From Eledone cirrhosa (lineage: Eukaryota): 64,000 bases of DNA. Every line of letters starts with the position of its first letter. The first letter of the stretch is position 1. The stretch lies in NCBI GenBank assembly GCA_964016885.1, contig OZ024743.1:30566001-30630000 (forward strand). Direction: 5' to 3'. Shown in pieces: positions 5,284 through 64,000 of this stretch. Below the pieces are notes generated by a model that was not told where the DNA came from, ran no database searches, and worked only from the letters and a program-made list of their open reading frames with translations. Both the position numbers and the translations under genes were made by a program.

Positions 5284-5479
5284 AGGCCACATACATGTTG
5301 TCCAATAACTACATTTTCTAGCATATTGCATATATATATATATATATATATAAATGAAGTAATTCCGTCGGAAAAGTCCAGGAGAAAAGAGTGCTCTGTG
5401 TAGGTAACAGAGCTTAATAGTTATGTAATAAACAACATAAGGCAATTATTCCATTTACCAGTGGTTTCTTAAAAGCAAA

Positions 5480-6907
5480 TTACAAGGTAAAAATAAGTGT
5501 AGATTTAACCAATTTGATATTGTCGATTTTTACCCATCTATTACTGTTTCCTTATTAACTAATGCCTTAGATTGTGTAAGACCCTTCATTAATATTTCTA
5601 AATTAGAAGAAGACATTATCTGTCATGCTAGAAAAACTTTACTCTTTACTAATGATAATATTTGGGTTAAAAAGTCAAACCCTGAAAACTCTTTTGATGT
5701 TGCAATGGGTTCATATGACAGTGCGGATGTGTGTGACTTAGTAGGATTACTCCTTCTCCACACCCTCAAAGAGAAATTTCCGTCCCATAATATCGGTTTA
5801 TACCGTGATGACGGATTAGCAGTTTCTCATACCACCAACGGCCATAACCTTGATAAATTCCGTAAAGATTTAATCAATTCTTTTGCTAACCTTAACCTTA
5901 AAATCACTATAGATACGAACCTTACTAATGCTAACTTTCTTGATATTAATCTTGATCTACTTACCGCCTCTTTTAAACCCTATCATAAACCTAATGAAAA
6001 TCTTAGGTATATACACAAAGACTCTTGCCATCCCCCTATATATTTTAATAATCTTATTCCTAACATTAGCCGTAGGATTTCTACCTTATCTTCGTCTATA
6101 TACATTTTTAATAAAGCCGCCCCTTATTATAATAAAGCCCTTAAGAACAGCGGTTTTACAGAAAAAAATTCTTATTTACCTACCCCCCCCCCCCCCCCCC
6201 CTAAAACTAACCAGAATAACAGGAAAAGGAAGATTATTTGGTTAACACACCCCTTCTCTCTAACTGTCAAAACTAATGTAGGAAGGAAATTCCTTGAACT
6301 ATTAGACAAACATTTTCCTCCTAATCATAGATATTATAAGATATTTAATAGGAACGTAGTTAAGATCAGCTACTCTTGTTGCCCATCTATGAAGTCCAAA
6401 ATCACCAGTTCAAACCATACGAGAATAAATCCAGGATGCAGTTGCAGGAAGCCGGATGAATGCCCATTGCAGGGTAAATGTAACACCAAATTTGTTGTTT
6501 ATGAGGCTAAGGTAACCCCGGTAATCAACAACCAGCCATCCAGGAGTGAGCGATATGTCGGTATGACCCAGGACAGGTTTAAAACCAGATTTTACTCACA
6601 TGTCGCTTCTTTTAAGCACTCCGATAAACGAACATCAACGGCCCTCGCAAGTAAGGCGTGGGAACTCAAGGATAGTAATATCCCGTACTCTATTGATTGG
6701 TCTATATTAGACCATTCGAGGGAGTACCAAAGAGGCACAAAGAATTGTTCTTTGTGTACCACAGAAAAGTATAGGATTTTGCTTAACTTGAGAGCCACTT
6801 CCGCTTGCCTTAACTCAAAGACTGAGATCTTCAGATGCTGTCCTCATCTGAAATCGCATCTGATCTGCAACTGGATTGACACTCCTATGATAAATCAACC
6901 GCCTTGA
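5480..6907 (+). CDS. PLE reverse transcriptase (partial) + GIY-YIG endonuclease, Naiad-type
   Basis: Frame is open upstream of the tracked ATG (QFDIVDFYPSI); MGSYDSADVCDLVG, GLYRDDGL, CSCRKPDECPLQGKC, VVYEA...YVGMT, CSLC..EK, LNSKTE motifs. Confidence 0.9.
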   Translation, partial: LQGKNKCRFNQFDIVDFYPSITVSLLTNALDCVRPFINISKLEEDIICHARKTLLFTNDNIWVKKSNPENSFDVAMGSYDSADVCDLVGLLLLHTLKEKFPSHNIGLYRDDGLAVSHTTNGHNLDKFRKDLINSFANLNLKITIDTNLTNANFLDINLDLLTASFKPYHKPNENLRYIHKDSCHPPIYFNNLIPNISRRISTLSSSIYIFNKAAPYYNKALKNSGFTEKNSYLPTPPPPPPKTNQNNRKRKIIWLTHPFSLTVKTNVGRKFLELLDKHFPPNHRYYKIFNRNVVKISYSCCPSMKSKITSSNHTRINPGCSCRKPDECPLQGKCNTKFVVYEAKVTPVINNQPSRSERYVGMTQDRFKTRFYSHVASFKHSDKRTSTALASKAWELKDSNIPYSIDWSILDHSREYQRGTKNCSLCTTEKYRILLNLRATSACLNSKTEIFRCCPHLKSHLICNWIDTPMINQPP

Positions 6908-38850: not shown

Positions 38851-41800
38851 TTACAGATATATACTCAGAGTAGGCCCATTCACTCGGGCCATTCTTGCTT
38901 CTCTCACCCATCTTTCAACAAAATGCTGGGAAGAGAGCACTTCCCTCTCTACTCTGATTTTCCTTTTCAAATGAAATTTGAAAAAGTCAATCAGAGCATC
39001 ACCGAAGAGGTAAGTGCTCGTCTTCAGCCCTTTCAAACGTGTCCACCATACTATCTCTTTCACCATGGCCACCAGGCAGATAAAAACTGCCTGCCCTTCC
39101 CGGCTAAAGGAGGAGGGCGGGGCGATCCTCACGATGGACTCAGATGATAGCCGGATCCGTCCTAAACGCGACAGCAGGTGTTCGACATAAACCCACAAGT
39201 CAGCAATTTTCGGACACTGGACGAGTGCGTGCAGGACGGTTTCGTCGCCCTGCGCGCATCTCGGACATGCCCGGCTGACGGCACCTCCATGCCTGTAGAG
39301 TTTATCCCGAACTGGCAAGGCTCCTCGGTAGCACTGCCAGGCCAGAGATTTCTGGAAGTTGTCCATAGGCCCTGGCCCGAAAGTTCTTCCGAAGAGATTG
39401 GCTAGTTGATTTTCGTCGACGCCTAGAGTTTCCCCAAGTACGTCGTCGCTCTTCCCCTCCACTAATCCTCTATAGAACGCCGAGGTGGAGTTTCCACCGA
39501 TCACATTGCCCGATTGGTCGAGGGCTGTGAGCGCCTGAAGACATTCCAGTCTCCAGGCGCTCCCTCTCGGTCTTCGCTTGACCCAGGACTGCAGCTCCGT
39601 CAAGGAAACGAGCTGGGGAAAAACGCGTCTAGCAAACGGCGACCATACCTGATCACCGTCGAGGAAGAGGTGGAGATGTCGTAGCCTGAGCGCGTGCCTG
39701 CGCATCATCAGCCACGGCATGCCCAGCCCTCCACGTAGCGGGTGTTGCCAACAGATGGACAGCCTGACCATCGGAGCACGTCCCTTCCACAAAAAGCGAA
39801 AGAGCAAACGCTCCAGCGCAGTCAGGCGAGGCTTAGGACAAGGTACGACTGGTTAGGCGGTAGCAGATGACAGACGCGATGTACGCGTTAGCCACCTCCG
39901 CTCGACTTTTCAGGGATAGCTTCCTCTCCGCCCATTTCTGGGTGAGAGAAGCCACCCTGCTCGTCACCTCGTCCCAGTTTTTGTCCGTCTGGAGGTTCGG
40001 ACCGAACCAGACCCCTAGCAATTTAACCGGTCCGTCCATCCAGCGCCCGACGACGCTGTTGGACGGCATGGACCTGCCTCTCCAGGTGCCGAGCTGCAGG
40101 CCCACTGACTTTTCCTGGTTGATCATTGCTCCTGTCACCGCTTCGTATTCTCTTAGTGTAGTGCCGATCGCCTCGATGTGTTTGGCGTTCGACACCACTA
40201 CGGTGACATCGTCCGCATATGCTGATACGGATCTTCCGCATCCTAGTTCGCGCGGGACTCCCCTCAACGTCTCCAGTTTGTGCAGTAATGGCTCGAGAGT
40301 CAATACGTACAAGAGGGACGAGAGGGGACATCCTTGGTGGACCGAGCGCATGATGTTGAACGGTTCCGACAGGTGACCGTTCACTCTCACCACAGAGCAG
40401 ATGTCGCTGTGCATGGCAGCGATCCAGCCTCTGAAGACGGGCCCAAAGCCAGCCGCCCTCAGGACTGCCGTTAGGTAACGATGGTCGACCCTATCGAAAG
40501 CTTTCGACTGATCTAAATTGATCAAGGACCCACTCGTGCCAGGTTCCTTAGCTACCCTCTCTATGATGTATCGCATGAGGTGGAGGTTGTCGTGGATGGA
40601 TCTGTCGGGAATGGCGCATGTCTGCGCCTCTCCCACCAGACCACCAACGACAAGCGCCAACCTCTTTGCTAGCACCTTGGCCAAAATCTAGAACTCTGTG
40701 TTTAGCAGAGTTATGGGCCGGAAATTGTCTATGTTATCCCCCTTGTTCGGATCCTTTCTCAGCAGTGCCACCGCTCCTCGGCTCACAGAACTGGGAATTC
40801 TCCCATTCTGTTGCCAGTTGCAGTAGACGTCCGCCAAGAGGCCTCCGAACAAGTATGGCATCTGTACGTAAAGTTCATAGGGCAGACCATCCAAACCAGG
40901 CGATTTACCCCTTGTGCAGCCAGTCATTGCCTCCCTTACTTCAGCGGCTGTTATCGGCTTTTCGCAACACTTCGCCTCAGTGGCCGAGAGCCGCGGCAGT
41001 CCGTCGTGGTAGACACTAAAGTCCATCCCTCTACCCGGCCCCCCGCTGCCCCCGAACAGCTGAGCGAAGTGTCGCTGAAAAGCTTCACACATTTGCCCGG
41101 GATCGAGTAGCATGCGCCCGTCGTGGTCCACCAAAGACCGGATCGTGGCTCTGTTGCCACGACGCGCCTCCGCCACTCGGGCCCATTGAACGGCTTTCGT
41201 CCCCTCGTGTCTGAGAGCACGCACCCTAGCTCTGACAACGCAGCCTTCGTGCTTTGCATTGAAGAATTGGTCAAGGGCCAATTTCGCCGCAAGCACGTCG
41301 GTCGCAATGCCTTTGCTAAGCCCACGTCTAATTTTCTAACTAGTTCTCCCTCTGCTCTATTTTTCTCTATTGCTAAAGCCTTACTAACCCTAATCGATTC
41401 TATTATAATCGCTCTTTTCAGAGCAAACCACCACTTGTTGTTGACGATGGCCCCCGTCAACGCCCGCTTAACTAGTTCGCTAATCCGGTCTCTGTAGGCC
41501 TTGCGCGCTGGTAAGGACGCGTTTAGCTTCCAGTAGCCGGGTCCTCGTCTATGAAGCCTATCTAAGTCAAGCACACAGGTCACGAATTTGTGGTCCGTGT
41601 AGCTGACTATCTTGAATTGTGGACAGCCTATGCTAGACCTATCTATTTCCCTACAAAATACTCTATCTAGATATGATCTGGATGACCCTATGCGGTTTAT
41701 CCAAGTCCACATTGGCACATTCGGGAAATCCAATCGGTACCTGTCAGACAGTTCAAAACGCCTGAGCAGGTTGGTGAGCCTCTTGCACCCTCCACCCCTA

Positions 41801-42270
41801 TCCGCTAATCCCACACAGTCCCAGCGTGCATCTAAGATCCCGTTCCAGTCGCCTACTAACACTAAAGAGCAGGACGTTCCAAGAAAGGTCTCCAGACGCC
41901 GGAAGAAATCAGGCCGCCCTGCTCCTGTCGGGGCATAGACGGCCACTAGCCTGAAAGCTTGCCCGTCTCCGCTGGTCACGTCCAGCACCACCAGCTTACC
42001 CTCTGTGTCCAGGAAGATGGCCCGTATGGCGAGATCCAAACCTCTCCGAAAAAGCACAGCAACTCCTCCACCCGATCCAGGACGGCTGGGAGATGCGTAC
42101 ACATCGTAGCCGCCGAAGATCGGTTCGAAGGCCCGTGCTTCGGAGATTCTGGTCTCGCTGATGGCCACTACATCTATGTTTAGTGACCTGAGGTCGTTGA
42201 GCAGGTGACCCTGCTTCCATGACGACCCCAAGCCACGCGCTTTTATGCTGCCTATTCTGAGTGAGGTCAT
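38851..42270 (-). pseudogene. LINE ORF2: APE endonuclease, reverse transcriptase, C-terminal zinc finger
   Basis: VAISET, GDWN, YLDR, TDH (APE); KSPGLDG, RPITLLN, LDQSKAFDRVDH, QGCPLS, YADD (RT); CPRC..ETVLHALVQC; frameshifts near 41320 and 39835 and an in-frame TAG at 40688. Confidence 0.95.
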
Positions 42271-42305
42271 GTTTAAAATAGAGTGGAAAAGATGGGAAAG
42301 ACCAC

Positions 42306-43858
42306 TTACCGTACTTTTGGTAGAGGAGGGATGGTTTTTACATTCCTTTTCACTTGATCGTCTGGTGAAGGGACCGTTGAATCGTCCCTTCGGCTGGTCG
42401 TCGGCTCTTCTAAGAGAATGTCTGAATATACTCTTCGATTGATGGTTCCTCCTAGGTCCCTGAAATCACCAACTGCGTTGGGGAATTTCGTTTTAATGTT
42501 TGTGTATTGTTTCTGTGCTATTTTTAGCAGTCTTATGTTAGTTGGCGTTTTGATTGGTGCTATTATGTAGTCCTGTTGTGAAATGTCTGTGAGTTCAATT
42601 ATGTAAGTCATTAGTTTCTTGTTGTGTGTGTTTATTGCCGTGCATTTGTTTTTCTGGGGGTGGGGTGTGGTTCTGCTATTTTCTTGTCGTTGTTGCTGGG
42701 TGTGTGTGTTTTGTTGTTGTTTTTGCGATGTTGGTGCTTGTGGTGGTGATGTTGAAGGTGTTGTTGGCGGTGGGGTTGTCGCCGGTGGTGATGGTGGTGC
42801 TGGTGTGGGTGGTGATGGTGTTGGTGGTGTTGCTGCTGTGGGTCTCTTTGCAGTAGACTTTACCCTTTTCTCATTTCTTTCCTCCCTTTTCAAAGGCGAC
42901 GATGCGCTGCTTCTGCGTTTGTGCCTTCTTGCGACCTTTTGCCATCCCTCTCCCACCTCACACTCCATGTCTGATTCTGTGAGGTCGGGGAGGGGTACCA
43001 GCTCCTTCTTTCACTTGTTGTTGTTGGTGATGTTTGCACTGGAGTCTCTGTTGCAGCTGCATTTGGTATTGCTGTTGTTGTTGTTAATACTTCCACTGCT
43101 GCTGCTGTTTTTGATTTCCGTGGAGTGGGTATGGGTGCCACGGACCTATCGTTCCTGGTTGCCGCTTGTCCTGTTGCTGGTAGCCGTGGAGCCGGATTCG
43201 GAAGGAGGGGGGTTTTCTCCTTTCTCAGGGTCTTCTCGTTGCAGAAGGCCCTGAGGTGAGTCTTCGATCCACAGCGAAAGCATTTCGGGCGTTCGCCCTC
43301 AACACTTATGGGCAGTTGAGTGCCGTTATCGAAGTCTATCACATCCAAGTTTTTCGCAATACCTGCAAATGAGATTGGTTTTTCTCTGCTGTTGTTGTTG
43401 TCGTCAGAGCTGCTGGTACTTTTGTTGTTGCTGCAGGTACTACGACTACTGCCTCCGCCGCTGTTGCTGTGGTTGTTCTTGGTGTTGCTGCTGCTAAAGC
43501 TGTTGTTGTTTATGCTGCTGGTGATGCTGTTGCGGCTGCTACTGTTGTTTTCATTGTCACTGTTGCTGTTGTTATTACGGCTGCTACTGCTATTATTCCT
43601 GACGTCAGACGAATGAACTGGGTTTTCGTATTTCCCGCACACCTGTTTCGTCGCTGTCGTCGTCGTCGTGGAGAAACCTTGCACGCTTTGCACGAGACTT
43701 TTCTTTTCTTTCGTCACTTGCGAAAGAGAAGGGAGGGAGAGAGACACATTTAAAGAAGGGAGGGAGAGAGACAATCTTCTCTCTGCTGTAGTGATGATTG
43801 AGGAAGAAGAAGACGGAATGAGTGGGAGTGACGTATGAAATCTCTTTTTCGTAGCCAT
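42306..43858 (-). pseudogene. LINE ORF1 (gag-like, zinc knuckle), internally deleted and frameshifted
   Basis: CFRCGSKTHLRAFC knuckle; S/N/T/P low-complexity tracts; WQKVARR motif. Confidence 0.8.
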
Positions 43859-45267
43859 GTTGTTTTTTGTTTAAAATGAAATTTTGGGTACAAAACCCCA
43901 ATAACTGGTTATTTAACTCCGAAGGGCCAAATAACGGACAGAAAGACCCCTCTCACGAGGAGGAGGGTGTCTTTATCAACAATTTGGTTCAAGTTTTAAA
44001 CAATTTACAATTGTTTTAACGGTTAAAAATTACTATACCTTACAGAGCCGAGCCTCCGTCAACCATGGCATTCAATAATAATAATAATAAGCAAAAAATG
44101 AAGAGAAGTAGTAGTAGTGGGAGGATGAGGAGGGGGAGGATGAGGAGAAGGAGCAGCAGCAGTAGTAGTAGGTAGAGGAGGGAGGGCAGCAGCAGCAGCA
44201 GTAGTAGTAGTTGTTATAATAATGTCGATGTTGATGAGTCAAAAAAAATTAGAAGCGGTAGACATTGAAGATGGTATTGGTGTTAATTATAATATTGCGC
44301 CTAGAGTAATATTTTAATCGTACCAAGGCTACACTTCTCTTTCGAATAATTGATATCTGAATTCGTCAGAGCTTTGTTCATATCTGTGGCCAATTCTCCT
44401 GATTCAAGTAGCCGTAACAATTGTATGAAGCATGAATTATAAACAATATACTATTCACTATCACTTCAAATTTGATTTCTTGTACTTATGAAGTGGCAAA
44501 TACTGACTGACATTTTACTAATAAGTAGGTTAATGTAGAAGAATATATCTAACATAACGTCTAATGAGGTCTTCGGGTCATTTGCTGTTAAATAAACATT
44601 CATGTGCAATGTATCGATAAACTGCACAGTATATAGATAATTACATTATTATAAGAGATATATATGCTAGTGCGGTTATTGTTTCTTCTCTGTTTAGTTC
44701 TGTTCATACAACCAGAGGTAATCTTGTCTACTGTATTTAGAGAGCATTTACATTATTACCCTATTCATTGACCGCACACACAAATATTATAAATATGAAA
44801 AATTAATCCATAATTTATATATGAAATAGCAACTAAAAACAGTATTTCTATATTTTTAAATTTTATTCATGATCATGGTAAGAGATATGTGAGCGTCAGA
44901 CCTAATCGACGTTGGCTGGCTAACGAAAACTCACAAACTGACACAATACTGAGCGCTCACCGATTTGTGTCTCGTTTACACCAGTGCTTTTGAAACATCT
45001 GGAGCCCAGATTTTCTGAACAATTTTACTATTCATCTCAAGAGGTTTGAAGACAGACATGTGCTAGAACAAACACATCGAATAAGGTTAGAACCTCCCAC
45101 ACAATCCGCCAGCAAGCCCTCACGGTGCCACTAGTTCTGAACGAAAATAAAGTTTCTATATTTATCTGCCCAACTGCCTAATCAAGCCTATCCTACTTAA
45201 CGTTTTACCCCACCCCCCAAAGAGGCGTTTCACCAGCTAGAACCGGATATTTATATATATATATATA

Positions 45268-45595: not shown

Positions 45596-45727
45596 GTGAG
45601 GTTTTTTTTACAAAATGATAAATAACCGAGGTGTCCTACACGAGTGGAAGTATAAAGAAAAAGGGATGAAATCGAAAATGCAACTGAAGTCTTATTTTTT
45701 AAAAAAAATATATATATTTATTTGGTT

Positions 45728-45765
45728 CCTTTACCGGTTTCGCAGTTCTTCTGCTTTTCAAAAGG
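45728..45765 (-). ncRNA. Minimal type I hammerhead, U3-A8 core
   Basis: Inverted copy of 50695-50732. Confidence 0.8.
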
Positions 45766-47328
45766 TGAGTTGAGATGTAGGGTCTGTGGTTTTTCTCACA
45801 TCTGGTTGGTCTCTAAATGTTACTTGTTTTATATGGAAAAAGTGGCTCGAAAACCAGGTTTTTCGAGAAGTAATTTGATTGGTTTGTCAATAATTATAAT
45901 AAATTTCGCGCCAGTTCGCGTTACAATAGTTCCTCAAATAAGAGAGGGGGGGGGGGTTGTCACAGGTTGTTTTTTCATATATGAGTGTTTGAATTTCTTT
46001 TTACTTGAAAAAATGAGGCTCACGAAGGCTTTTTTTTGGTTGGTTATAAATGAAATTTGGCTGTCACGTGAACAAGTTTTCATTACATTTTTGCGCCCTT
46101 ATTTGGAAAACTATTCTGTATTCTTTATAGTGAATGTTATGACAAGGGAGAGATAGTGGTCAAGGGAAAAGGGATTGGGAGAAATGTTCTGGTTCAGTGA
46201 ATATGGCCAGCTGTCAGAGTTCAGGTGTCAGAGTTCAGATTTTCTATTGAGACTGAAGATATGTGTTTATTTGTGTGCTTGTGTGTATATGTGTGTGTGT
46301 GTGTGTGTATGTGTGTATTGGAAGATGATTCTATTAGTAGAGATGGGGGAGGGTGTTATGTGTGTGTGTGCGAGTATGTTAGATAGAGAGAATATATATT
46401 TTGTGTGTGTGTATATATATATGTGTGTAGGAAAGTGGTTCTATTAGTAGAAATGGGGAGGGTGTTGTAGGTGTGGGGGTTGTTATGTGTGTGTATGAGT
46501 GTTATGTGTGTGGTAGTATGGTTAGCATGTTAAGATGAAGAGAATATATATATATATATATATATATTGTGTGTGTGTGTATGTGTGTGTGTAGGAAAGT
46601 GATTCCTTTAGTAGGAATATTTTTGAATGAACATATTTTCCTGACTTTTTCGTGTTTGCTGTTGTATTGCCAGTGCAAACGTATGTTTAAGGTTTATTTA
46701 GTTCGGCTTTTTATTTTCTAAAGTAGAAGGTGTTATGTGTGTGTGTGTATGTCATATTGTGGTGTTTACATAATGTATATTAAACCTTATTTAATGTTGG
46801 TCTATATTTTTGAATAAACATATTTTCCTTATTTATTCGCATTTGTTCTGTTGTATTGTTAGCGCAAAGGTAAAATGGGAAGACTTGGAATTTGGGTGTC
46901 TTATTACTTGCGCAAATGTCTAGATATGCACTTAGTGGTATCTGTCTCGTGGTTGGATCTCGTAATTGTTGGCGATGAACTGTCATTCTGTTTCTGAGTG
47001 TGAGTTTAGTTTGTCCTATATAATCTTCATTGCATCCTTTACATTTAATGGCATAAAATAGATTTTTTGATGAGCAAGTGAAGTGATTTTTTACAGTAAA
47101 ATTTTGTCCTGATTTAAATGTATACGTGTTGCCTTCAATGAGGTGAGTGCAGGTTCCACAATTACAGCGACCACATTTTTTGATACTTGGTTGTGGGTTT
47201 GTGGTAGGTCATTTGGCATTGGTGAGTAATGTTTTCAGTGATTTTGGTTGTCTTTTGCTTTTGATTATTTTGTGTGTTTCAAGGGCTTTTTTCATTCTTG
47301 GGTATACTAATTAGATATAATAATACCA

Positions 47329-49662
47329 ATGAAAAAACATTCCAGAAAAATCATTTTTGTTAGACCAAGGCTACAGGACTCACGACACCCGGTGGCACAA
47401 ACCGATTTTGAAAAACCGAAAATAATTAACATTTCAAATACAAACCTCTCAGCCCAACAAGTAAAAATTATCTCCAAAGGTCTGAAATTCACACCAACAC
47501 CACAATATCCTAACCCCAACGAGATAAATGACGAAATCTCACACTTCTGTAGAAAATTACGTCTCACAGAGGAATTCTTTGACAAGGAGAATAACGACGA
47601 ATCAATTGTACGGAATAAAAGCAGCTACAACCCAACAAAAGGTAGAAACAGAGTTCTGGACAAATTTTGTGACCACATAGCTACCTTCCCATACCATGAA
47701 CTACCGCAACCTAAACCCAAACCCAACACAAGTCGAAGGGAATGGGAGATTGTCCATGAACTAAAAAACAATCCGGACATTGTAATTAAGGAAGCGGACA
47801 AGGGAAGTACTGTTGTCATTATGGAGGCTGAAAAATATAAAAATTATATGTTCTCTCTCTTACAAAATGCTAATTACTATGAAAGAGTAAAAAACTACCA
47901 GCAATCAAAAATAATGACCAAATTAAACACACTGATTTATCGATACCAGGAAGACCTAACTAAAAAGGAACGCGGTTATTTAACAAATTTTGAATACAAA
48001 ACCAGCAACCTTTACGGACTTCCGAAGATCCACAAATGTAAAATAATCAACGATGCCTGTAAACAATCCACCTCAGCCTGCGTGAACACACAATACCCCA
48101 CATACCTTAAATTAAGACCAATTGCAGCGGGCCCACAATGTGAAACACACAGATTGAGCAACTTTATAGACATACTACTGAAACCAATACTGAAACACAT
48201 ACCAAGCCTTGTAAGAGACGATCTGGACCTCTTAAACCACCTCCCCAAACATGTCAACAACGACACTATTATTGTGTCTTTCGATGTAGTGAATCTCTAC
48301 ACAACGATCCCACACCAATACGGACTAGAAGCAATAGGATTCTGGCTAGAGAAATATCCCAATGAGATACCTGACAGAATAGAAAAAAGCTTCATCACCG
48401 GCGGATTAAAATTCATCCTACAGAAGAACTTTTTTGATTTCGATGGCAATACTTACAAGCAAATATCGGGGACTGCGATGGGCACAAAAGCCGCTCCAAC
48501 TTATGCCAACTTAGTCATGGCATACTTAGAAGTCCAGATATATGAACAGTCCAAATCAAAATACGGATTGAACTTCCACAAATATTTATCAGAGAATTGG
48601 AAACGCTACTTGGATGATTGCCTCATTCTTTGGTCCCAGACACTCGACCAACTGAAGGATTTCAAAAACTTAATAAACGGCATCAATAACCACATCCAAT
48701 TCACAATGGAATACAGCCAAGATCAACTCCCATTTCTGGACATCTTAATCACAAAAAAAGACACAAATATCGAAACTGACATACACTACAAACCAACAGA
48801 TTCCAAACAATATCTGCTATTCACCTCCAACCATCCAAAGCACACGAAGACGAACATTCCTTTTAACCTAGCAAGAAGAATTTGCACAATTGTCTCCAAT
48901 TATGAAACGCGAAATAAAAGACTTCAAGAATTAAAGGAAATTCTACTTGAGAGAGAGTACCCACTATTACTAATAATTAATGGAATAGAAAGGGCTAAAG
49001 CAATAGGCATTGATGAATTACGGAAACAGAAACAAATTCAAGGTACGTCCAATATTCTATCATATATCTCAACACACAACCCAAGAAATGCGGAAGCTTA
49101 CAACACTATTCACAATAACATCCCACTACTAAAACAAAACCCAAGAATGAAAAAAGCCCTTGAAACACACAAAATAATCAAAAGCAAAAGACAACCAAAA
49201 TCACTGAAAACATTACTCACCAATGCCAAATGACCTACCACAAACCCACAACCAAGTATCAAAAAATGTGGTCGCTCTAATTGTGGAACCTGCACTCACC
49301 TCATTGAAGGCAACACGTATACATTTAAATCAGGACAAAATTTTACTGTAAAAAATCACTTCACTTGCTCATCAAAAAATCTATTTTATGCCATTAAATG
49401 TAAAGGATGCAATGAAGATTATATAGGACAAACTAAACTCACACTCAGAAACAGAATGACAGTTCATCGCCAACAATTACGAGATCCAACCACGAGACAG
49501 ATACCACTAAGTGCATATCTAGACATTTGCGCAAGTAATAAGACACCCAAATTCCAAGTCTTCCCATTTTACCTTTGCGCTAACAATACAACAGAACAAA
49601 TGCGAATAAATAAGGAAAATATGTTTATTCAAAAATATAGACCAACATTAAATAAGGTTTAA
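47329..49662 (+). CDS. PLE RT + GIY-YIG endonuclease; one in-frame TGA at 49231-49233
   Basis: KGLKF, ADKG, YGLPKIHK, LRPI, SFDVVNLYT, GTAMGT, RYLDD, PFLD; after the stop the same frame gives CGRSNCGTC, LFYAIKC...YIGQT, R..VH, E, LN. Confidence 0.92.
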
Positions 49663-50694: not shown

Positions 50695-50732
50695 CCTTTT
50701 GAAAAGCAGAAGAACTGCGAAACCGGTAAAGG
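50695..50732 (+). ncRNA. Minimal type I hammerhead, U3-A8 core
   Basis: CCUU-UUGAAAA-GCAG(AAGAA)CUGC-GAAA-CCGG-UA-AAGG. Confidence 0.82.
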
Positions 50733-51495: not shown

Positions 51496-52070
<575 letters not shown>

Positions 52071-52102
52071 ATAATAACTTGTGTGTTACACCTCTATTCT
52101 TT

Positions 52103-57670: not shown

Positions 57671-58360
57671 GAAAGATGAAATCGAAAATGAAACTGGAGT
57701 CTTTTTTTTTTAAATATATATATTTATTTGGTTCCTTTACCGGTTTCGCAGTTCTTATGCCTTTCAAAAGTATAGTTGAGATGGAGGGTCTGTGGATTTT
57801 CTCTCATCTGGTTGGTCTTTGAATGTTAGTTGTTTTATACGGAAAAAAGACCTCGAAATGCCAGGTATTTAGAGAAGTAATTGGTTGGTGAATAAGTATA
57901 ATAAATTTCGCGCCAGTTCGCGTTACAAAGTTCTTCAAATAATGGGGCGGGGGGGGGGGGGGGGGGGGGCTCAGGTTGTTTTTTCATGTATGAGTAAAGT
58001 TTGGTTGGTTGATTCAGTCACGTGAATAAGCACATCAACTTTCGTGCCAGTGTGTGATTGAATTTCTTTTTACTTAAAAAATGTGGCTCATTAAGGCTTT
58101 TTTTTTATACATTTAATTTGATTGGTTATAAATGAAATTATGACTGTCACGTGAACAAGTTCTTTACATTTTACGCCTGTATTTGTGAGTTTATTTTGTA
58201 ACCTTTTAGAGAATTTTTTGCCAAACAAAAGGTAATGGTCAAGAGAAATAGGATGGGGAGAATTGTTCTGGTTCAATGAATATGCCTGGTTCGCTGGGGT
58301 GTCAGAATTCAGACTTTCTATTGAAATAAAGAAAGTAGAAATATGTATGTTTATTTGTGT
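57662..58360 (-). mobile_element. Solo pLTR/3' end of the Neptune-like PLE family with HHR remnant (57734-57772)
   Basis: Diverged homolog of 45651-46280. Confidence 0.9.
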
Positions 58361-61240: not shown

Positions 61241-61288
61241 AACATTTGAAAAGATGGCTTTTGCAGACCCATCGAAACCGGTCATTTT
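61241..61288 (+). ncRNA. Minimal type I hammerhead, U3-A8 core, GUC site, 5' of PLE ORF
   Basis: AACAU-UUGAAAA-GAUGG...CCAUC-GAAA-CCGG-UC-AUUUU. Confidence 0.78.
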
Positions 61289-61458
61289 TTATACCCTTTA
61301 TTATTTCCTTACCTTATAAAATTATATGTTTTTTCACAAAAAATATTCTGTCTCTTATATATTCCATGTGCCATTACCAACCTCAATTTTCTCTATAACC
61401 TTCGTTTTGTGTAGTAAATTACACTTTTCATATATACTAACCTACGCAAATACGGAAA

Positions 61459-64000
61459 ATGGCACTGGAACAAGACAACACAACTTCAAACTCCAATATA
61501 AATGAGGAAATCCTGAAAATCCTAAAAGAGATAAATGGAAAACTCACCATTCTGACAAAAAAACAGGATATACCCTAAACCACCACACCGACTGACAACC
61601 AAATTTATTTAAACGTTCAAAACGTATGCAACTCCATCGAAAAACTTATGAATACCAACACAGAACAGACGACATTGCTCCATATCAAAAACCAAATGGG
61701 ACACCTCTGGAAAAAACATCTAAAACCAGAAAATTCACTTTCTGGAATGTGATAAACAACCTCAACAAAGCTGGAATTTACCAAAAATGGATTAACTCAA
61801 CACCGATAGTTTTACTACGTAAATTCTAAATAAAGCATATTACAAACGAACCTGAACCGGAAAGAAAACTCCGTGAACAAATGTCACTCAACAGGATAAA
61901 CATGGAAATAGAACTACTAAAATTAAGGGCCACCACCAACGAGCAAGAGTATAAGAATACTGATAAAAATATGGAGGAAGGATGCACTAAAAAGGCCGAG
62001 GGAACAACCCTACAAAATTTAATCAAATCGTGGAAACAGGACTGCGAGAATGCAGAAATTATTTCCCTTAAACGGTGGGAAAAATCCGAAAACTGGTTCC
62101 TCAAATATGAAGAAGACTTTAAAAGGACGCACCAAACAGGTAACCCCTTTATAAAACATTTGAACATAACAAGAACTACAACAGACACATTTACACCACC
62201 AAACCCAACACACACTATCCACACGCACATTCCCCACCAACACAAACCAAATACGGCCAACTATACCAACAGAAACACACCCAACCACCACAACACAGGT
62301 TTCCGTAGAAATGCCCCCTACATAAACCAACGACGAAATAACATAGATCCAACTCACAACACATACACCACATTCCTCAGAAGAAATCCACCCAGACCAC
62401 TTGAAATCACAACAGAACTTACCCACAACCACACCAGACATCACCCTCAATCCAACAAAAGCCAACCCCCCAACCTCAACACTCTGTACCACAGAAATAA
62501 CGCACCCAGACCACATGAGCCAACAACAGAACCCTTGCTCATCAACAACCACAACACATGCCACCCCCAGCATCACATTCACCCTCATGAAACAACAAGC
62601 TACAGACCCACACGCAACAGACCAACAAAATATAATCACACACAAAACTACATTCCTTTTTTAGGGAAAAGCCTGAAATACCAGGATACTCGATGCCCCC
62701 CCCCCCTCCCTCAGGAGAAACCAAAAATAATCAACCTCTCAAAGACACCTCTAACCAACACACAAATCAACATTTTAAGTAAGGGCCTGAAATTTACACC
62801 TACACCACGTAAACCAAACTTCCCCGAAATGAAGGATGACATCATGGAATACTGCCGAAAGCTGCGACTAACGGAATTCTTCCACAACGACACCAACACT
62901 GAAGACGAATCACTGGTTAGAAATAAAAGCAATTTCTGCCCACAAAAGGGAAGAAATAAAGCACTGGACACGTACTGCGAACACATCACCAACTTTCCCT
63001 ATGAAAAAATTACAAATAAACACACGAAATCAAACCTATCTACACACGAATGGGAAGAATTATTCACTCTTAGAAACAACCCTGAGATAACTTTCAAAGA
63101 AGCCGATAAAGGCAGTACTGTTGTAATTATGAATACGGACTACTATAGGATCCTCGCACTTAACATTTTAGAAAACAACACATACTATGAAAAAACAGAA
63201 AACTACAAACACACCAAAACAATGGGGAACCTTTTGACCTTACTGAATAAATACCGCAACAGCTTAACCACAAAAGAGTTTAACTATATAAGCCACTTCA
63301 AATGCAATACAAGCTCTTTTTACGGCTTACCGAAACTCCACAAATGTAAACCCATAAACGATGCATGTGACACCTCAACCAACAATTACATTGAACTAAC
63401 ACCACCAGAAGACCTAAAACTCAGGCCAATTATAGCAGGCCCTACATGTCAAACCCACAGACTTAGCAACTTTCTGGACATCCTACTGAAACCCTTTCTA
63501 CAACATATACAGAGCTACATACGAGATGACCTTGACATGCTGAAACACCTCCCTAAAACAGTAAGTGCAAATATAATTCTTGTCTCCTTTGACGTAATAA
63601 ACCTCTACACAAACATACCCCACAATTATGGAATAACAGCAGTCCAATACTGGCTTAACACACACCCATCAGAAATACCGACACGCATCAACAAAGATTT
63701 TATCACTGACGGACTCCGCTTTATCCTACAAAATAACTACTTCACATTCTATGGTTCAACATACAGACAAGTATCAGGTACGGCAATGGGCACGAAAGTA
63801 GCACCCACATATGCCAACCTAATCATGGGATTCCATGAACAACAAATATACAGTCAGTCCCTTCTCTTATTTGGAGACTCTTTCCACACACACCTCAAAG
63901 CCAATTGGAAATGATATCTAGACGACTGCTTTATCCTATGGCAAGAAGACATGAACTCACTTACTATGTTTAAAAACATGATAAACAACATAGATAATAA
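61459..64000 (+). pseudogene. Neptune-like PLE with intact 5' region: coiled-coil/low-complexity N-terminal ORF followed by RT (runs off window)
   Basis: ATG 61459 (INEEILKILKEINGKL); stops/frameshift before 61881; RT motifs as in the 47-kb copy; TGA at 63912 in WK*YLDD. Confidence 0.92.

Follow-up and report, generated by a model that had tools for sequence, protein, structure and literature searches.

The window, that is, the whole 64,000-nt stretch analysed, comes from a 3.0-Gb animal genome and carries two PLEs on its + strand, which belong to two families (A and B). The family A element begins at approximately 61.2 kb and runs past the window end. Its ORF1 (61459..62730, +; family stop TAA at 62728–62730), which in intact copies is approximately 420 aa long with a helical core and a low-complexity tail, is disrupted in the window by premature stop codons and by the loss of 1 nt near 61721. 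Its RT (62657..64000, +), which the common form of the family has in the −1 frame and which leads into a CX4CXXC linker past the window end, contains an in-frame TGA at 63912–63914, immediately 5′ of YLDD; this copy is dead. The family B element (47.3–50.8 kb) encodes an RT, a CX4CXXC linker, and a GIY-YIG domain (47356..49662, +), with a stop at 49231–49233 ahead of the linker and endonuclease (49234–49662). It is 5′-truncated at about 47304, where an inverted copy of the family's 3′ end is found (45651..47303, − strand; inverted repeats I1–I3), a typical PLE structure that gives the terminal repeat its inverted arrangement. Truncated and interrupted by a stop ahead of the endonuclease, this copy is also dead. 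Pfam matched family B to RVT_1 (weakly) and GIY-YIG (4.5e-07), so that it has the RT and C-terminal GIY-YIG domain of an EN+ PLE; the family A coding sequence was followed as far as the Cys linker. The linker, of the CX2-5CXXC type shared by Neptune and Nematis, reads CGRSNCGTC in family B and CGRTNCGTC in family A.

Hammerhead-like motifs were located by pattern match approximately 175 nt 5′ of the family A ORF1 ATG (61245..61283, +) and, by pattern match and fold fit, in the family B 3′ repeat (50698..50728, +; mirror at 45732–45762 on the − strand). Both were matched to what we take to be the hammerhead consensus, with TTGAAAA standing where the usual core would be and a distance of 170–190 nt to the ORF1 ATG in tandem copies; Rfam gave no hammerhead match on three family loci. 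A TACTAAC motif within 61434–61458 (also in loci L009 and L148) is followed in sister copies by CAG, directly before the ORF1 ATG, and judged by eye is possibly a 5′-UTR intron acceptor as in Penelope. Elsewhere in the window, a third PLE-type ORF (5441–6907, +) has an RT with YRDDG, a Cys-rich linker, and a GIY-YIG-like end, motifs that are presumably like those of the Hydra clade, and had no Pfam match. The window also contains a fragmented non-LTR retrotransposon (38851–43870, −; Pfam matches to AP endonuclease, RT, and zf-RVT), a near-perfect palindrome (51601–52073; 235-nt arms, 98% complementary, 3 nt between), and an older fragment of the family B terminal repeat (57675–58284, −; 79–94% alike).

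The initial annotation had proposed a −1 frameshift site between ORF1 and RT, and the T TTT TTA GGG on which it relied was found at 62657–62666 in the ORF1 register. The slippery heptamer (T TTT TTA, X XXY YYZ) occupies 62657..62663 (+), and the next codon is GGG (62664..62666, +), or AGG (Arg) in the −1 frame. In each of two samples of family A, the heptamer was present at 30/30 loci (6 loci common to both), and within the portion of one family copy that was checked no other T6 run occurs. Because TTTTTTA is common in the window (23 occurrences on the + strand), its significance rests on conservation at the junction position.

Downstream of the heptamer lies an expanded poly-C tract (62696..62710, +), 7 nt longer than in the common family form, which brings RT in frame with ORF1 in the window copy. 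It includes the annotated C11 run (62696–62706), and with one C fewer ORF1 does end in RRNQK-stop with RT in −1, a state that sister loci L005, L014–L016, and L025 show. Among the 30 loci retrieved with a junction-spanning query, the heptamer was invariant and the C-run varied by −3 to +5 nt, giving 12 fused copies, 10 in +1, and 8 in −1; among 30 loci chosen by RT alone, 23 shared one short tract of constant length (7 nt less than in the window) and 25 had RT in −1. As the former sample is skewed to the window's C-run and the latter to little-diverged copies, exact genome counts were added, which gave 77 short-form copies (RT in −1) and 71 with an expanded C-run (mixed phases in the 30 examined). 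In these 71 copies, the phase-variable tract sits inside the ORF1/RT overlap, and some read as ORF1–RT fusions; RT slippage, germline slippage, or assembly error may lie behind the expansion, and it is conceivable that some fused copies are active. In the stable family form, ORF1 ends in ...DTRWPPLRRNQK-stop and RT is in −1 behind a short fixed tract; the fusion in the window is therefore a product of homopolymer expansion, the accident of the C-run that the annotation had suspected.

In family B, the annotated T TTG TTA at 47356–47362, with RT in −1, was found in place, but it is not the site of the diverged family: a private 2-bp insertion created it in the window copy alone (heptamer with insertion at 47354..47362, +), and the 29/29 other copies read CAT TTT TTA GAC. 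The 0 frame of the 47-kb copy reads LDQGYRTHDTRW...NRK-stop, as described, with the stop (47423..47425, +) overlapping RT codons K-I-I-N. When family B copies were chosen by ORF1 (400 aa in length), the junction was identical in 30/30, and the first Met of the RT frame is residue 156, well past the conserved GxKF motif at 42.

Families C–F were found by protein searches of the genome. In all six families (ORF1 30–70% alike) and in one outside contig, L241, the heptamer stands in the ORF1 register and the RT-endonuclease frame is in −1. RT was in −1 at 28/30 loci of family C; the heptamer with RT in −1 was the majority state in the older families D and E; in family F (ORF1 core 30–41% identical), the heptamer was present at 6/7 loci with RT in −1; and in L241, the ORF1 of which is only 27% identical, heptamer and RT phase were unchanged. 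When metagenome, viral, and GTDB contigs were searched, ORF1 matched nothing and RT matched 2, 0, and 1 loci; L241 alone has the junction, L242 has lost it, and L243 is a single ORF without the heptamer. In L243 (1–2644), a PLE-like RT is preceded in frame by a long N-terminal extension; this contig, filed in a bacterial MAG, is likely host DNA.

The codons of the heptamer are conserved beyond what the protein needs. Fourfold sites among families A, B, and C are saturated (0.20–0.40 identical, 0.32 expected), and among the 23 RT Leu residues conserved three-way in these families, none is TTA in all three. By codon use, the chance of the three codon choices is about 0.012 per family. Since synonymous sites are saturated and the Phe-Leu codons invariant, T TTT TTA appears to be kept for more than its amino acids. 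The family consensus was not one uninterrupted ORF with Phe-Leu codons free to vary synonymously, the outcome that the annotation had set against its own proposal, but a split form with those codons fixed. The −1 frame opens 1–20 codons before the heptamer and stays open after it, and its first Met falls after GxKF in families B, C, E, and F, is lacking in L241, and is residue 13 in A and D. Upstream, the low-complexity tail of ORF1 (134–184 codons) has 0 stops in frame 0 and 4–12 in the other frames, indicating that ribosomes must reach the heptamer in register.

A protein survey extended these observations. The ORF1 profile matched 826 clusters at 50% identity, of which the best 150 were taken, giving 154 proteins in all; no protein among these 154 exceeds 553 aa. 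For the 80 homologues of at least 330 aa, heptamer and RT phase were inferred from residues, not from DNA. FL occurs in the last 45 aa of 69/80, compared with 2/80 and 3/80 in the two preceding windows, and neither FL nor FF occurs in the tail of 8/80; the FF case P0049 was excluded as not the site. At the 71 F[LF] sites, the preceding residue is never Q, K, E, M, or W, none of which has a codon with a final T (19% by background; P 2e-7 without correction), whereas one of these residues precedes FL elsewhere in the same proteins in 37/69 cases. The lineages are related, and such P values therefore overstate independence. The C-terminal FL with its residue filter is, as read from these protein sequences, the apparent shadow of U UUU UUA. 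P0036 and P0053 have tails close to those of P0023/P0033 (ADHNW) with YFR where FL is expected, possibly a variant or lost shift site.

The 20 homologues that were looked up comprise two named "hypothetical protein" and others without a name, and one further ORF1 homologue fragment is from Octopus bimaculoides. ORF1 is predicted to form long helices (mean pLDDT 75.7, 11 sequences); it had no credible Pfam match, no PDB fold match at E 0.001, and no usable Atlas match. ORF1 was not taken as Gag, as the Gag-like lead from ESM stayed under 0.9 and neither Pfam nor PDB gave a Gag match. Its position and basic tail suggest that ORF1 may have a structural or RNA-binding role.

The region downstream of the heptamer offered no conventional stimulator. 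The small CCTG/CAGG hairpin noted by the initial annotation is present (62672..62685, +; 4 bp, 8 nt past the heptamer), but its role as a stimulator was not supported, as it is unconserved and insignificant against shuffles (z −0.41, −1.54). Across the seven lineages, z for the downstream fold ranged from −2.05 to +1.62, none significant, with C and E nearly unstructured; shuffles did as well on a simple pseudoknot score, and Rfam returned only microsatellite noise at family loci. The stable RNA structure 5–9 nt downstream of HIV-type sites was thus not found among the local folds covered. DTRW as an RNA stem was also rejected, because third positions differ and pairs are missing in C–E.

The position of the ORF1 stop is unusual. 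Among the 71 sites, no ORF1 stop occurs within 10 codons after Leu, where 28–38 would be expected at stop densities of 0.05–0.075 (measured densities, 0.072–0.078), and in 20 of them it falls exactly at the next codon, 10 codons (about one ribosome length) after the heptamer, although the intervening sequence is unshared; the tails of the other 51 are longer than this form. This codon, the 13th from Phe and 10 codons after UUA, is also a stop in families C (TAA), D (TGA), and E (TAA) and in L241 (TAG), whereas in A, B, and a number of closely related proteins it reads TGG (TGC in the window copy; 62694..62696, +). A rule that codon 13 is always Trp or stop holds in A–E and L241 and fails in F and most distant proteins. 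In family F (L274–L280), a poly-Lys stretch (AAA AAG AAA AAA) starts at precisely this 10-codon distance, and this A-tract is possibly a pause that replaces the stop. On a quick tree, 20 of 22 exact-spacing rows fell in one clade (SH-aLRT 97; 8 changes vs 19 for shuffles), indicating long retention rather than 20 origins. In one shorter protein, FL lies 8 from the end and is probably not the site. Longer tails are Gly-richer just after FL (1.8 vs 0.4 per 10 codons; P 3e-5, kinship ignored), which would fit G-rich RNA stimulators there.

Taken together, these comparisons point to a −1 ribosomal frameshift at U UUU UUA that probably joins ORF1 to RT, a reading to which we assign a probability of roughly 0.85. 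The proposal passed every comparative test that was run, as far as sequences can speak to it: the heptamer lies in the register of the upstream ORF, the −1 ORF is open from it, the heptamer is conserved beyond amino acid need, and the −1 ORF has no start of its own in B, C, E, F, and L241, with a Met at residue 13 in A and D. ORF1 and the RT-endonuclease would be the two overlapping frames of an EN+ PLE; a minority of ribosomes would slip back one base on the heptamer and yield an ORF1–RT–endonuclease fusion in the retroviral gag-pol fashion, with ORF1 presumably the more abundant product. Against this reading stand the failure to find a stimulatory fold in the seven lineages, the AG at the end of the heptamer in 7/7 DNA lineages, which is compatible with a 3′ splice site, and the 22/30 junction-chosen family A loci that are out of −1 phase, shifted copies being common in the genome.

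RT might instead be made separately, either by termination-reinitiation or by initiation within the overlap, at the −1 codon lying across ORF1 codon 13. That codon is ATG in A and D, GTG in B, and ATA in C, E, and L241, stop and start overlap as AUGA in family D, and two family D copies have in common a −1-frame stop upstream of it; however, an NTR codon in −1 is forced by any 0-frame stop, the codon must be Leu in 3/20 proteins, and the −1 stop is limited to 2/30 old family D copies. Furthermore, family F has Lys there and its first Met only at residue 166, and ORF1 of A, B, and F stops 21–33 codons on, at a conserved RT motif. Separate synthesis would also leave the in-register heptamer and the filter on the preceding codon unexplained, and we consider it very improbable.

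The annotation also named TTTTTTAG as a possible 3′ splice site, which would join an upstream exon to RT. Besides the AG after the T-run in the seven DNA lineages, a G-starting residue follows FL in 49/69 proteins, and PLEs carry and retain introns (PMC8557442). However, the codon after the heptamer, although G-starting in 7/7 DNA lineages, is non-G in 20/69 homologous proteins, and Y, W, P, N, L, F, or H follows FL in 15/69, where AG is impossible, which argues against a splice acceptor. The best phase-2 donor in ORF1 scored 1.4 of 8.8 in A and was negative in B, C, F, and L241 (simple matrix). Neither the invariant AG nor the in-phase donor of a U2-type site was found. The site is always TAG with exactly six T, with an upstream T fraction of just 0.10–0.25, and it keeps an ORF1 register that splicing does not need; family B has 0 joined copies against 185 intact ones, a weak point given that PLEs retain introns. 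The chance that this is a splice acceptor is very slim.

A similarly slender prospect is that RNA polymerase inserts an extra U while transcribing the T6 run, which would produce a fusion protein identical to that of the −1 slip and would need no RNA stimulator, in line with the finding of none. The codon register would be equally unneeded, yet it is kept in 71/80 proteins, and six T is short for polymerase slippage. The remaining suggestion, one continuous ORF1–RT frame of which the split copies have decayed (or, in the annotation, a 47-kb copy with an indel), has a negligible chance and, as far as the family form goes, is refuted: twelve of the 30 junction-chosen loci, the window copy among them, are in phase 0, six of these loci being open from heptamer to locus end, but fusion arises solely via the variable C-run, the 77 exact short-form copies are in −1, the five other families and L241 are split, and no long homologue was found among the 154 proteins or, more weakly, in a search of proteins of 738–2105 aa.

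If the −1 frameshift is accepted, its stimulator may be the ORF1 stop itself. The larger eukaryotic ribosome would suit a 10-codon spacer. Stop-bound ribosomes in E. coli reporters promote −1 slippage of the ribosome that trails them, with an optimum spacer of 9 codons (PMC6815119). By analogy, the leading candidate, although only tentatively, is a ribosome that terminates or pauses 10 codons farther on and would hold up the trailing one on the heptamer; a protein-bound stimulator, a long-range stimulator, or bare low-level slippage are also possible. More broadly, and still doubtfully, these PLEs might form a large and undescribed two-ORF EN+ lineage (826 ORF1 clusters at 50% identity) with a collision-driven −1 frameshift, in which the terminating ribosome 10 codons past U UUU UUA is a roadblock replacing the pseudoknot, and in which lineages that no longer have this stop have gained Trp, a poly-Lys/A-tract, or G-rich sequence at that position. 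Enzyme output would then be tied to the ribosome load on ORF1. A fixed 10-codon stop distance predicts that a terminating ribosome is a natural eukaryotic frameshift stimulator, for which synthetic bacterial reporters are the only precedent in the literature covered, and the stop spacing is the part of the finding most worth testing first.

PLE RT expression has been little studied. A gag-pol-like organisation that recurs over hundreds of lineages, with a helical ORF1 that has had no name, changes their annotation, where RTs are being separated from the protein that precedes them, and points to a particle rich in ORF1. Some 70 natural versions of an HIV-type slippery site for which no RNA stimulator is evident become available as well. 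In the literature covered, which lay outside subscription papers, Repbase, and the Athena/Terminon papers (PMC5850863, PMC1890498), no frameshift in EN+ PLEs and no natural stop-collision stimulator was found, and 300,000 of the 449,034 characters of a frameshifting review (PMC5009743) contain neither "Penelope" nor "Athena".

Among known systems, U UUU UUA is the frameshift site of HIV-1 and SFV, and a 25-nt element with the slippery site alone can slip (PMC6771820, PMC4373837). The PLE junction resembles HIV-1 gag-pol and Semliki Forest virus 6K/TF in heptamer, 0-frame register, and the G after it (GGG/AGG in family A, as in HIV-1), and it resembles gag-pol in having the enzyme ORF in −1 behind a non-enzymatic ORF. 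Unlike HIV-1 and SFV, the PLEs showed no downstream stem-loop or pseudoknot in our folds and the host is a non-viral retrotransposon; neither Pfam nor PDB connected ORF1 with Gag. Athena/Terminon is presumably the clade meant where PLEs are described as having a frameshift with a pseudoknot; Athena has no endonuclease, whereas the PLEs described here are EN+ and have no evident pseudoknot. The legend to Fig. 1 of Craig et al. 2021 (PMC8557442) allows for a PLE ORF1 "separated by a frameshift with a pseudoknot"; in those elements a coiled-coil-like ORF1 is connected to RT through a frameshift, as proposed here. Neptune-clade EN+ PLEs, as described in the same source, share with the present elements RT, the CX2-5CXXC linker, C-terminal GIY-YIG, GxKF, DKG, the inverted terminal repeat, and (TA)n surroundings. 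Canonical EN+ PLEs are called single-ORF there (PMC8557442), unlike those described here, which have a separate 400-aa ORF1 in a different frame. Esterases are reported in Neptune-like PLEs (PMC5408684), in contrast to the helical ORF1 found here, which has no esterase match. Finally, although the E. coli collision reporters (Smith et al. 2019, PMC6815119) are synthetic and bacterial with an optimum of 9 codons, and the PLEs are natural and eukaryotic with 10 codons, as inferred from spacing, the two share the slippery heptamer, the lack of RNA structure, and a 0-frame stop approximately one ribosome length on.
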